Shown piece by piece: positions 5,769 through 50,007 of a stretch of 51,168 bases of DNA. The notes below the pieces were generated by a model. It did no database searches. It was not told where the DNA came from and saw nothing but the letters and a program-made list of their open reading frames with translations. Made by a program: the position numbers and the translations under genes. The stretch's first letter is position 1, and each line of letters begins with the position of its first letter. The stretch comes from a virus. Lineage: Duplodnaviria > Caudoviricetes. Location: IMG/VR virus record IMGVR_UViG_3300023099_000120, positions 1-51,168 of that record. The stretch is one strand, 5' to 3'.

Positions 5769-6356
5769 ATGACTAAGACGATAACTATCAATTCAGATAA
5801 ATTTGTTCAAGCTTTAGAGAAGATTTCAGAAAAAGAAGTTGAGATAAAAGGTGCGTCGATAAGTGATGCACTATGCGCATATTCATACGAACTTCTAAAA
5901 GGGCCAACCAAAGGAGATACTTTAAATCGAAAAGGAGCACATATTGTGCACGATGATCTACAAATTAGATTTGATCAATTGGATGTGTTTTTTGCTCATT
6001 TAGATGATGCTTACACAGGAAATACAAATGTTACTCCACTGGAAGAATTAGAGGCTGAGATTGAAACCGAAAAATACCATGTTACCGGGTTTAAAATCTC
6101 AGGTGTCGAAGAAAACAAGTCAGTTATTCTTTCCGGATGGAAAGAGGTAACTAACGGTATTGTAAAGTTTGATGCTCCAAAAATAAAATATTCTACTGCT
6201 TATTTATATCTAAGCGACATGAAGGAGAGAGTCCAAAATGCAATTGATGAGGTTGAGCTGTATATGAATGGGAAAACGGCGCCGCAAGAAGATCCTAATC
6301 AAGTTCACATGTCTTTTGCCGAAGAAGATGCTGTATTTGAAAACGCCAAATTGTAA
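5769..6356 (+). CDS. Hypothetical phage protein
   Basis: 195 aa acidic ORF in the operon. Confidence 0.75.
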   Translation: MTKTITINSDKFVQALEKISEKEVEIKGASISDALCAYSYELLKGPTKGDTLNRKGAHIVHDDLQIRFDQLDVFFAHLDDAYTGNTNVTPLEELEAEIETEKYHVTGFKISGVEENKSVILSGWKEVTNGIVKFDAPKIKYSTAYLYLSDMKERVQNAIDEVELYMNGKTAPQEDPNQVHMSFAEEDAVFENAKL

Positions 6357-47477: not shown

Positions 47478-47897
47478 ATGATTTTAAAATATATACCTGA
47501 TGGTAGTTTGGTAATTGGATTACTAATTATGTGTGCTTTAGATTTTGTGTTTGGGGTTACAAAAGCAACATTGACAAAAACTATTAGAACTTCGAAAGGG
47601 TTCAGAAAGACATTTACCAAATTCACTCAATATGGAGGTGCTATTGTGATGGGAATAGTTCTTTTAAATATAAAAAGCGTTAGCGATAGCAGATTTGGAA
47701 GTGAATACTCGAGTCTATTTGGGGATTCGATGATAAGTATAATGATTTACATTGAAGTTGTTTCGATTTTGGAAAACATGGAAGTCATAGGAAAAGATAC
47801 TGATTTTGTAAAATATTTTATCAGACCAGTTCGACGATTAATCACTTTTCAAGTAAAAAATTTATTCTCTGATACAGGGAATATAATAACTAAATAA
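47478..47897 (+). CDS. Holin (phage holin family 4-like)
   Basis: TM helices, LDF..GV.KA, S.G.RK...K, EV.SILEN. Confidence 0.88.
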   Translation: MILKYIPDGSLVIGLLIMCALDFVFGVTKATLTKTIRTSKGFRKTFTKFTQYGGAIVMGIVLLNIKSVSDSRFGSEYSSLFGDSMISIMIYIEVVSILENMEVIGKDTDFVKYFIRPVRRLITFQVKNLFSDTGNIITK

Positions 47898-47906
47898 TTT
47901 ATAAAA

Positions 47907-48383
47907 ATGGACAAAGCTACAGAACAAAGAATTGCGCAATTGCATCCAAATATTCGTCAAGAAGTTACCAATATCATTAACGAATGTAATCGTTCACTTA
48001 CTGGGAGAGCACAAGTGAGAATTTCTCAAGGTTTGAGGACATTTAAAGAACAGGATGATCTTTACGCGATAGGTAGAACTAAGCCAGGGAAAATAGTAAC
48101 GAATGCCAAAGGTAGTCAATCGATCCATAATTATGGTTTCGCGGTCGATATCGTGTTGATCATTGATGGTATGACGGCTTCATGGGACACTGCAAAAGAC
48201 TGGGATGGAGATAAGATCTCGGATTGGACAGAGTGTGTAAACATATTTAAAAAATCTGGTTGGTCCTGGGGCGGTGATTGGAAAACGTTTAAAGATCTTC
48301 CACACTTTGACAAAAAAGGATTTTCTGACTGGAAAGTCCTAAGCAAGCTTAAACGAGATAAAAATAACTACGTAATTATCTAA
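47907..48383 (+). CDS. Endolysin, M15 family (L-Ala-D-Glu peptidase-like)
   Basis: G.RT..EQ..LY..GRT.PG.IVTNA.G.QS.HNYG.AVD, WGGDW..FKD.PHF. Confidence 0.93.
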   Translation: MDKATEQRIAQLHPNIRQEVTNIINECNRSLTGRAQVRISQGLRTFKEQDDLYAIGRTKPGKIVTNAKGSQSIHNYGFAVDIVLIIDGMTASWDTAKDWDGDKISDWTECVNIFKKSGWSWGGDWKTFKDLPHFDKKGFSDWKVLSKLKRDKNNYVII

Positions 48384-48384
48384 T

Positions 48385-49002
48385 ATGCAGCTATCATTAA
48401 TAATTCAGAATATAAAAACTCTTTTGATCGGTGTAGCAATTGTTGCTGTTGTTTGGTTTTATAAAGATTATACTTTTCAAAAATCTGAAAATGAACGACA
48501 AACTGAAAATGCTAACCAAGTTCGAAAGCAAGATAGTTTGCATTTTGCAAGTCAATTATTGTCAAAAGATGAACTAAGCGATTATCTGCAGTATGAAAAT
48601 TCAGATTTGAAAAAGAAGCTTGTTAATGCTGGAATAAAAGAAAGTAGAATTAAAAGTATAATTTCCCAAACTTTAAAGTACCGAGATACCACAAAAAGAG
48701 AAACTGATGTTTCCGGATTAGTTGAAGCAATTAAAAATCGCATTCCTAGATCTCAATCCTGGAGTGACACAACAAAATGCATGACCGTAAGCGGAGTTGC
48801 TTCTTTTGACGGACAGAAACTCAAGGTTGTCGTAATTGATCGCCAGTTCAATAATAAATCGGATGCAGTTGCTTATTGGGAGCGCAGGGAGTGGAGTTTT
48901 TTAGGAATTAAGACTCGTTTTCTAGGTAAGAAGCAATTTACTTCTAAAGTATTTGATGAATGCGGAGAAAGCCGGACAATGAAAATTGAAAAGAAAAAAT
49001 AA
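48385..49002 (+). CDS. Spanin-like lysis accessory protein
   Basis: N-terminal TM and periplasmic helical region directly after the endolysin. Confidence 0.55.
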   Translation: MQLSLIIQNIKTLLIGVAIVAVVWFYKDYTFQKSENERQTENANQVRKQDSLHFASQLLSKDELSDYLQYENSDLKKKLVNAGIKESRIKSIISQTLKYRDTTKRETDVSGLVEAIKNRIPRSQSWSDTTKCMTVSGVASFDGQKLKVVVIDRQFNNKSDAVAYWERREWSFLGIKTRFLGKKQFTSKVFDECGESRTMKIEKKK

Positions 49003-49004
49003 TA

Positions 49005-49141
49005 TCCTGGAGGTGTAAATAAAAATATCCTCCAACAAATAAAAACACTTCTCACGGTAATTTATATTTAGCACAAGCCAGCGTTGGAGGACAGAAGTCT
49101 TCTATGCTGGCTTTGTTATTTTAATAAATTCCGTGAGAGGT
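49005..49141 (+). promoter_or_regulatory. Structured RNA leader (long hairpin with alternative pairings)
   Basis: 49047-49057 pairs with 49131-49141 and the helix continues to a short loop near 49093-49096; TCCTCCAAC (49028-49036) is complementary to GTTGGAGGA (49083-49091). Confidence 0.7.
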
Positions 49142-49179
49142 ACAAATGTAATAATCATCAATCATCAATCAAAGAACAA

Positions 49180-49830
49180 ATGGAATTAAAAATCAACAAG
49201 TATCATGAAATACTAAATACTATTATTAGTAAAGGAAAACGTCAAGAAAATAAGAAAGGATCTATAACATATTTACTAAATCAAGTAATTGTTTTTAAGC
49301 CTATCGACTTATTGGATCTTTTTGAGAGTCATGCTGTTGCGAAAAAGAAATTAAAAGACGAATTGGTTTTATTTATGGCAGGGGAACGTTCAACTGAGGC
49401 TTATCGTGAAATTGGTGTATCATGGTGGGATTATTGCGGGCCGATATTAGTAAATAGCTATCCAACATACTTTGAGCAGTTGCCGAAGCTCATTGAAAAA
49501 ATCAAAAGTGAAAAAAGAACTTCTAAGAATTATGTTTTGTTTTTGGGCGCAAATAATACTGAAAGTAATCAGCAGCCATGTTTAAGTTTAATACAGTTTC
49601 AAATCGATAAAGGTAAACTTATAATTAGCGCTTATCAACGAAGTTCAGATGCAAGTTTAGGATTGCCTTCCGATATTTATCATTTATACCTTATTAGCAA
49701 ACAGATAGATCTAGAATTAAAAAGTATAACGATTTTTTTAGGTAATGTCCATATTTATGAAAATAATTTAAAATCGACCAAGCAATTACTTAAAGGAGTG
49801 CCAGCGACATTTAACTTGAATGTCGGTTAA
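49180..49830 (+). CDS. Thymidylate synthase-family protein, divergent (216 aa)
   Basis: QPC..LIQF, YQRSSD..LGLPSD, GNVHIY; the ATG at 49180 is preferred to the TTG at 49084 buried in the hairpin. Confidence 0.88.
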   Translation: MELKINKYHEILNTIISKGKRQENKKGSITYLLNQVIVFKPIDLLDLFESHAVAKKKLKDELVLFMAGERSTEAYREIGVSWWDYCGPILVNSYPTYFEQLPKLIEKIKSEKRTSKNYVLFLGANNTESNQQPCLSLIQFQIDKGKLIISAYQRSSDASLGLPSDIYHLYLISKQIDLELKSITIFLGNVHIYENNLKSTKQLLKGVPATFNLNVG

Positions 49831-49848: not shown

Positions 49849-49886
49849 AGAAAAAGCAATCATTACTGATCGCTTTTTCTTTTTTT
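49849..49886. terminator. Bidirectional terminator
   Basis: AGAAAAAGC...GCTTTTTCT followed by a T-tract, between convergent genes. Confidence 0.75.
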
Positions 49887-50007
49887 CCAGCTATCGTTGT
49901 GATATTTATTGCTAGGATGTCCTTGAAACTTTTTAACTAGCAATGCTACTACAAGGACAATTACTGCTACTGTTATTAAAATGTCGGATAATTCCATTTG
50001 AAAATTT

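Follow-up and report, generated by a model that had tools for sequence, protein, structure and literature searches.

The intergenic segment at 49003-49179 (177 nucleotides, nt; plus strand) of IMG/VR virus record IMGVR_UViG_3300023099_000120, a 51-kb provirus record analysed over its full 51,168 nt (the window), appears to be a portable attenuator-type cassette, probably with an antisense RNA gene, that would gate exchangeable genes for DNA modification where the late operon of Flavobacteriia prophages ends. We give this reading a probability of roughly 50%. It draws on RNA structures, their conservation, covariation and strand, on a link to one type of cargo gene, and on promoter-like and terminator-like sequence features. 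In the window, the cargo is a gene for a ThyA-like protein.

Architecture of the element

An earlier note, made from the letters of the sequence, had described a switch-like RNA leader containing an imperfect hairpin of about 95 nt. The hairpin is real (49047-49141), and all sequence elements named in that note were found where it had placed them. Folding of positions 48995-49200 gives -61.7 kcal/mol on the plus strand, compared with a shuffle mean of -27.9 (z -8.9, 0/200 shuffles as good), and -52.1 kcal/mol (z -4.65) on the minus strand. In the outer stem of the hairpin, ACTTCTCACGG (49047-57) is paired with CCGTGAGAGGT (49131-41), and the apex is made of GTTGGAGGAC (49083-92), a loop AGAA and GTCTTCT (49097-49103). 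Four short segments with alternative partners, R1 to R4, and the remaining features of the element are as follows.

49009-49013, plus strand: R1, GGAGG, upstream partner of R2, starting 6 nt past the stop codon of the upstream open reading frame (ORF)
49027-49036, plus strand: R2, ATCCTCCAAC, which includes TCCTCCAAC at 49028-49036; able to pair with R1 or R3, proposed antiterminator strand
49037-49046, no strand assigned: A-rich linker AAATAAAAAC, which reads on the minus strand as a U-run after the hairpin
49047-49141, plus strand: 95-nt imperfect hairpin with outer stem, A/U-rich middle, GC-rich upper stem and R3:R4 apex
49070-49122, plus strand: terminator-like unit inside the hairpin, composed of the upper stem-loop (49070-49117) and the U-rich tract UUUGUUAUUUU (49112-49122)
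49083-49092, plus strand: R3, GTTGGAGGAC, with R2 or R4 as alternative partners
49097-49103, plus strand: R4, GTCTTCT, pairing with R3 through two fixed G.U pairs
49040-49138, minus strand: predicted antisense RNA of ~100 nt, starting near 49138 and including the hairpin and the U-run GUUUUUAUUU, with both ends predicted
49143-49150, minus strand: match TACATTTG to the Bacteroidetes sigma-A -7 box TAnnTTTG, 2 nt past the hairpin base
49170-49173, minus strand: candidate -33 element TTTG, 19 nt upstream of the -7 box

A direct repeat, ATATCCT, stands at 49003-49009 and 49025-49031, ahead of R1 and R2; it was observed in the window copy and was not seen to be conserved among relatives. A repeated phage-wide operator was considered and rejected, GGAGGAC being present just once in the window.

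Relatives and distribution

Viral contigs were searched with the ThyA-like protein, and the best 80 of 515 relatives were kept. The intergenic element was found by blastn in 24 of these 80 loci, while a covariance model built on 20 copies placed it on the plus strand in 44 of them, besides the window. A pattern anchored on R2, R3 and R4 added at least 70 viral loci and at least 120 genome stretches. Among the matches listed, 87 distinct elements were left once GC-rich chance matches had been removed, and matches outside Flavobacteriales were such chance matches. The 39-44 copies derived through ThyA are the only ones unbiased for the R2, R3 and R4 cores and for the box described below. Covariation was evaluated in a model-based alignment of 39 plus-strand relatives together with one stray minus-strand row.

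The cassette is ~170 nt long and occurs in at least 87 distinct prophage loci. Among the matches listed, all named genomes are Flavobacteriales, represented by Flavobacterium, Capnocytophaga, Riemerella, Myroides, Kaistella and Wenyingzhuangia. Each of four element-bearing genomes harbors one or two copies, and in one family, sampled with 151 genomes, a match was detected in 5. A blastn search of a phage record collection gave no match to the element, the single weak match being to the ThyA part. The Rfam search proposed in the earlier note was likewise negative, as no family in release 15 reaches its gathering score in the window or in 14 further loci. Below threshold, the hairpin resembles microRNA precursor models (e.g. 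mir-7131, scoring 21.7 bits where the gathering score is 74), which is generic hairpin resemblance. No description of the motif was found in the published literature outside supplements, and related transcripts of prophages might be among those tabulated with PMC9723704. The element is thus a previously uncatalogued RNA cassette of a known general kind.

Covariation and strand of the structure

Covariation, which the earlier note had put forward as a check of its proposal, bears out the long hairpin, and the element itself is conserved in 44 of the 80 ThyA-like loci kept. In the hairpin, 96.2% of alignment cells are paired, compared with 76.9% in shuffles; changes on both sides are observed in 20 of 26 pairs, with a covariation score of 0.507 against 0.155. 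None of these values was reached in any of 500 shuffles, and slid controls had 41-55% of cells paired.

Pair cells of the hairpin in the 39 relatives comprise 815 Watson-Crick, 137 G.U, 6 A.C and 28 other combinations, and 65 G.U against 6 A.C are left when the two fixed G.U pairs of R3:R4 are taken out. For the hairpin region alone, the fold is stabler on the plus strand in 74 of 76 delimitable elements (means -53.2 and -41.9 kcal/mol for the plus and minus strands). The G.U excess, together with the stabler plus-strand folds, indicates that the structure is selected on the plus-strand transcript, in accordance with what the earlier note had concluded from G-U pairs in the single copy. The two fixed G.U positions of R3:R4, present in 35/40 and 37/40 rows, confine this helix to the plus strand.

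This one-sided distribution of wobble pairs also bears on a possible action of the element at the DNA level, as an anchor for recombination, an inverted repeat bound by a protein, or a hairpin in single-stranded DNA through which cassettes are swapped. Highly variable cargo behind a constant front end would suit such a role, R2:R3 is a perfect inverted repeat devoid of wobble pairs, and single-stranded DNA also tolerates G.T pairs. Nevertheless, ~40 compensated pairs whose wobbles are confined to one strand are better accounted for by a transcript than by duplex DNA, and the carriers are tailed prophages with tyrosine integrases in which no HUH or integron-type enzyme was seen beside the element. 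We regard a DNA-level explanation as very improbable, while noting that a recombination-anchor role is compatible with RNA function and that the two can coexist. Resemblance to integron attC sites was examined as well and rejected, half of the elements having no AAC/GTT ends and no integron integrase being located nearby.

The earlier note had also pointed to mutually exclusive folds, and both pairings in question are backed by comparison. In R2:R3, 89.5% of cells are paired compared with 84.2% in shuffles (0/500 reach this value), with double changes in 6 of 10 pairs. At its eighth pair, 23 rows have A-U, 16 have G-C and none is unpaired; in the pattern-derived set this pair is Watson-Crick in 85/87 elements (A-U 47, G-C 38). 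In one relative (L004), two core positions of R2:R3 are altered on both sides. As for R1:R2, the 39 nt upstream of R2 were compared with a control window, and the best run able to pair with R2 averages 5.8 nt there in the 39 relatives, against 3.85 nt in the control; runs of at least 5 are found in 36/39 relatives and in 10/39 controls. Variants of R2 with CCCCC are matched by GGGG in R1. Segments R1-R4 are near-invariant and the hairpin arms are free to vary, an invariance which we infer to be that expected of segments each fitting two partners.

In many copies a small hairpin, with a stem that differs between copies, carries R1 in its loop and is followed by an A-run, a geometry of H-type pseudoknots. 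This arrangement would be consistent with a switch that senses a factor or ligand. In such a switch an H-type pseudoknot, built from the GGAGG-loop hairpin, the A-rich linker and R2, would free or lock R2 upon binding of a phage protein or of a metabolite, for instance S-adenosylmethionine (SAM). The small hairpin covaries where it is present, and SAM is used by most of the cargo enzymes. Yet this small hairpin is absent from roughly a quarter of the copies inspected by eye, in which R1 and R2 simply pair as a hairpin. None of the Rfam riboswitch families matches, a binding pocket is not suggested by any conserved internal loop or junction, and the cargo also includes ThyA-like, Mom and amidoligase proteins. 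A sensing switch is, in our opinion, improbable.

Internal U-rich tract and order of folding

According to the earlier note, the structure has no U-tract and is therefore not a simple terminator. The first statement holds at the base of the long hairpin, where none of the 87 elements has at least 5 T in the following 8 nt of the plus strand. It fails inside the hairpin, where the U-rich tract UUUGUUAUUUU directly follows the upper stem, and the conclusion in part missed that the structure holds a terminator-like unit. The upper stem-loop is, as in an intrinsic terminator, a GC-rich stem-loop (-27.5 kcal/mol, z -6.4 in the window; median 39 nt and -26.3 kcal/mol across the 87 elements), and the tract after it has the composition of an intrinsic-terminator U-tract. 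In the 39 unbiased relatives the U-rich run has a mean of 6.6 U per 10 nt, with at least 6 in 33/39, compared with a T content of 0.29 determined on the 87 pattern-derived elements. In the pattern set at least 6 U of 9 are present in 77/87, a count that leans high since the best of several positions was taken. One variant (L090) preserves the R1-R4 set and the upper stem, which is then followed by T7, while the outer 3' arm and the CAAAnnTA box found past the hairpin base in other copies are absent. In this IMG/VR locus the element is on the minus strand (~5870-5962), and four small ORFs of 73-108 amino acids (aa) replace the modification gene.

Taken together, the pairings R1:R2, R2:R3 and R3:R4 and the U-tract constitute the anatomy of an attenuator, with the mutually exclusive antiterminator and anti-antiterminator helices of transcription attenuators backed by comparison. 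Mean energies of forced states in 77 elements are -67.9 kcal/mol with R3:R4 and -40.5 kcal/mol with R2:R3, and the start region is unpaired to 0.70 and 0.65 in the two states. The large energy gap and the equally open start region make both a thermodynamic switch and start-codon occlusion unlikely; translational occlusion was rejected on this ground.

In minimum-energy folds of truncated transcripts, R2:R3 is favoured when the transcript ends after R3 (78/87) or after R4 (66/87), and 15 nt further R1:R2 with R3:R4 is favoured in 82/87. The full hairpin is the final state in 84/87. This predicted folding order is that expected of an antiterminator that is active only while polymerase crosses the terminator.

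The same stability raises the question of whether the hairpin switches at all. It may instead be a constitutive processing or stabilising structure, an RNase III-type site or a 5' stabiliser that separates cargo mRNA from late mRNA, with R2 acting as a folding chaperone that keeps hold of R3 until the partner of R3 has been synthesized. The full hairpin is ~27 kcal/mol stabler than the alternative and prevails at the end of most folds; its imperfect duplex of ~40 bp is within the size range of known RNase III substrates, and processing accounts for the covarying outer stem, which attenuation does not. Left unexplained would be the conserved U-rich tract that follows the upper stem, the pairing of R1 with R2 and the plain terminator of L090, and because accessibility of the start region is alike in the two states, there is no evident benefit for translation. 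We consider constitutive processing unlikely.

Putative minus-strand promoter and predicted antisense RNA

A feature absent from the earlier note is a conserved promoter box on the minus strand. The motif CAAAnnTA is located 2-4 nt past the hairpin base, is invariant save at the two n positions, and is present in 38 of the 39 relatives, which had been collected regardless of it. Its reverse complement is TAnnTTTG, which in passages of PMC9723704 is described as the -7 box of Bacteroidetes sigma-A promoters, extending from -12 to -5 in Flavobacterium psychrophilum; in the window it occupies 49143-49150. The distance from box to hairpin is fixed, whereas that from box to start codon ranges between 0 and 133 nt.

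Promoters of this type have a second element, TTTG or TTG, at -33. A TTG at 18-20 nt from the -7 box, which is the canonical spacing, was observed in 45/88 elements, with a peak at 19, and a TTG within 17-22 nt in 53/88, compared with 29 and 24 in shifted control windows. The window has TTTG at 19 nt. The enrichment across elements comes partly from one subfamily with a conserved spacer. In that subfamily a G-free stretch between box and start codon, TCAATCATCAATCAAAAA (49151-49179 in the window), is near-identical; it holds the candidate minus-strand -33 TTG and could double as an unstructured translation leader.

Read on the minus strand, the A-rich linker provides a U-run, and at least 5 A within the 8 nt ahead of the hairpin base are present in 51/87 elements. 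Promoter, hairpin and U-run would likely make up a compact putative gene encoding a ~100-nt antisense RNA, from ~49138 to 49040. A generic promoter and terminator scan, based on sigma-70 and simple-terminator rules that are not tuned to Bacteroidetes or to long stems, gave nothing useful.

The small RNA on the minus strand might itself be the functional product, with plus-strand features as by-products of its gene. The invariant -7 box with its constant spacing to the hairpin, the -33 enrichment and the U-run after the hairpin are what such a gene would have, and the minus-strand hairpin, with the mean energy given above, still folds well. Wobble pairs, however, are nearly all on the plus strand (137 vs 6), and R3:R4 is impossible on the minus strand. 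In addition, R1 is situated beyond the minus-strand terminator and is nonetheless conserved and co-varying with R2. This explanation we hold to be decidedly unlikely.

Cargo and genomic setting

The earlier note had connected the leader with a DNA-modification gene, and this link extends far beyond the window. In 87 of 88 distinct elements (the 87 and the window), tblastn with representatives identified the first same-strand downstream gene as one of DNA-modification type. Cargo classes are D12 type a (29), ThyA-like (23), ATPase set (14), D12 type b (8), C5 (6), Mom (4) and long N6_N4 (3). Methylase representatives include two kinds of D12 N6-adenine enzymes, N6_N4 enzymes, one of them with a long N-terminal extension, and C5 cytosine enzymes. 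The Mom-family representative (PF25680, 1.8e-62) is a homologue of Mu Mom, and further representatives are an ABC-like ATPase followed by a formyltransferase-like protein, and an amidoligase. The one element that departs from this (L164) belongs to a spirochaete bin and probably matched by chance.

Genes upstream of the element vary among loci, and in 8 of the loci found by blastn a D12-class methylase gene is inserted between the element and the ThyA-like gene; together these observations indicate that the element travels with its downstream gene. Ten upstream ORFs were scanned, and they comprise 5 endolysins, 1 holin-like protein, 1 minor tail protein and 3 ORFs with no family; the latter are lipoprotein-like and may be spanins.

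In the window, the gene order on the plus strand is a tail-fibre-like ORF, holin, M15 endolysin, spanin-like ORF, the gap 49003-49179 and the ThyA-like gene, and a tyrosine integrase is located on the minus strand at the end of the window. With holin, endolysin and spanin-like ORF before the gap and a single enzyme gene after it, the element separates the last late/lysis gene from an enzyme gene at the prophage end. Neighbouring genes are listed below.

47478-49002, plus strand: lysis cassette closing the late operon, with holin, M15 endolysin and spanin-like ORF
47478-47897, plus strand: holin (Pfam PF05105, 1.3e-10; PHROG holin match)
47907-48383, plus strand: M15 endolysin (Pfam PF13539, 9.9e-19; PHROG endolysin match)
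48385-49002, stop codon 49000-49002, plus strand: spanin-like ORF (weak PHROG match to Rz-like spanin, 0.0045)
49180-49830, plus strand: cargo gene for the ThyA-like protein of 216 aa (PF00303, 6.3e-24)

Alignment of the ThyA-like protein to PDB chains shows that the catalytic Pro-Cys is retained and that PSD is aligned to the 'PFN' of thymidylate synthase, so that Asp replaces Asn. A change of Asn to Asp at this site moves specificity from deoxyuridine monophosphate to deoxycytidine monophosphate (dCMP), as in the dCMP hydroxymethylase of T4. The product of the enzyme may, as judged from this substitution, be a modified cytosine precursor rather than thymidylate.

Several other observations concern the cargo and its surroundings. 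Genes for the D12 methylase and the ThyA-like protein overlap by 8 nt at several loci and occur in either order elsewhere (L002, L003, L006, L007, L009 and others), which suggests a joint function. Another recurrent cargo (L084, L098, L112, L119 and others) is composed of an ABC-like ATPase of ~230 aa, a GNAT-like stretch and a formyltransferase-like protein, and is often found beside a C5 methylase. The GNAT-like stretch is in a different frame and has no starting ATG; it may be joined to the ATPase part by a frameshift, and the whole set may represent an undescribed DNA-modification pathway. Between the cargo gene and the integrase in the window, a minus-strand ORF of 44 aa with a hydrophobic core (49863-49997) has no family match above threshold.

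Proposed mechanism

In the mechanism we favour, the cassette would join the end of a late (lysis/tail) operon to a slot of exchangeable DNA-modification genes, and the late plus-strand transcript would enter a transcription attenuator. The intrinsic terminator would consist of R3:R4 together with the GC-rich upper stem and the U-rich tract, while capture of R3 by R2 would act as antitermination, and the hold of R1 on R2 as anti-antitermination. By default, R1:R2 would form and the terminator would fold, ending most late transcripts ahead of the cargo. When R1 is masked, R2 could take R3 in the brief interval that precedes synthesis of the terminator's 3' strand, so that polymerase would proceed into the cargo gene; read-through transcripts would afterwards close the whole hairpin of 95 nt. 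From a predicted host-type promoter next to the hairpin, the minus strand would yield the antisense RNA of ~100 nt, ending at the hairpin and U-run, and this RNA, or polymerase at its promoter, could further silence stray read-through in the lysogen. Termination, antitermination, a ribosome trigger, antisense transcription and its effect are thus what we infer from the observed features. The interpretation in the earlier note is supported in part: the plus-strand structure with alternative folds, its association with the downstream gene and the type of that gene are borne out, and an effect of the RNA on expression that is confined to late infection would be a prediction.

The likeliest mask of R1 would be a ribosome completing the upstream ORF. 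Of the 68 elements for which sufficient upstream sequence was at hand, 42 have the stop codon of the upstream ORF 5-16 nt before R1 and 3 have it inside or past R1. Short ORFs following R3 differ in frame and length among relatives when compared by eye, and neither a leader peptide nor a factor was identified as trigger of the attenuator.

Several observations weigh against the attenuator. The 87 pattern-derived elements were chosen by their exact R2, R3 and R4 cores and the box. The run of U is not continuous, many copies reading UUUGYURUUUU, and it is later sequestered by pairing to the A-rich segment on the 5' side. Because the hairpin state is much stabler than its alternative, R2:R3 would be able to act only transiently; moreover, R2:R3 is free of G.U pairs, and an inverted repeat in DNA would explain this one helix just as well. 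The role of the covarying outer stem is not explained by attenuation. TAnnTTTG has 82 matches in the window, compared with 75 expected by chance, so that it is conservation that carries the promoter reading. Finally, the nearest upstream ORF (at least 30 codons) ends more than 30 nt before R1 in 20/68 elements, which argues against a terminating ribosome as a universal trigger; such a ribosome could mask R1 in most copies, not in all.

A more specific version of the attenuator would make it a ribosome sensor. Read-through would then need a ribosome on R1, either a terminating one or a 30S subunit with a free anti-Shine-Dalgarno end, and the antisense RNA, whose apical loop has the R2 sequence, would compete for R3 in trans. 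The sensing segments would be GGAGG and CCUCC, in a phylum that is not known to rely on Shine-Dalgarno pairing to initiate translation. We offer this version tentatively and think it rather unlikely.

If the attenuator reading is true, the element would be a new widespread RNA family for Rfam and one of a handful of transcription attenuators on record for Bacteroidota and the phages that infect them. In temperate phages, the silence of methylases and of Mom-type and ThyA-type modification enzymes in the lysogen, and their dosed expression at a late stage, would then have an explanation. The motif marks a recombination-prone slot for the exchange of anti-restriction cargo, and the sequence downstream of it is a handle for finding new DNA-modification genes. 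The cassette is also a compact portable control part for Flavobacteria, for which genetic tools are scarce. Should the ribosome-sensor and antisense reading be true, it could point to a general rule by which temperate phages guard DNA-modification genes by RNA-based double locks.

Comparison with known systems

In phages, cis-antisense small RNAs are represented by OOP of lambda and sar of P22. Cis-encoded antisense small RNAs of DonS type are a known mode of repression in Bacteroides, as cited in PMC9723704 (reference 62). The predicted minus-strand unit of the cassette shares with these systems a short opposite-strand arrangement of host-type promoter, hairpin and U-run that overlaps the leader of the controlled operon. 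It differs in that the predicted RNA would cover the leader hairpin and not the start codon.

Attenuators of the trp and pyrBI leaders are built of segments that pair 1:2, 2:3 and 3:4, the last of these pairings giving a GC-rich stem with a U-rich tract behind it. The cassette shares this four-segment scheme and, in predicted folds, an antiterminator favoured briefly during synthesis; a ribosome near segment 1 would be a plausible trigger. Differences are that there is no dedicated leader peptide, the 'leader' being here the end of an ordinary late gene, and that the predicted terminator forms the inner part of a longer hairpin, which a covarying outer stem closes, with a putative convergent promoter abutting it.

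The closest functional parallel, by analogy, is the com-mom module of phage Mu. Passages of PMC3299994 describe mom as harmful if mistimed, expressed late, located at the genome end and strictly controlled at several levels, including by mRNA structure. They also describe Mu-like prophages in which unrelated N6-adenine methylases stand behind a conserved com (FluMu and Pnm1), in the place taken by Mom in Mu. The two systems share a risky DNA-modification gene at the end of the late region, a constant regulatory front end and swapped cargo, and Mom-family proteins themselves are among the cargo of the element. They have no sequence similarity, and a six-frame search of the 51-kb window gave no match to the Com zinc-ribbon gene (PF10122). 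Nor is the start codon hidden as in Mu, the start region being about equally open in both folds of 77 elements (0.70 vs 0.65 unpaired), which makes control in the cassette more likely transcriptional than translational, unlike that of com-mom.

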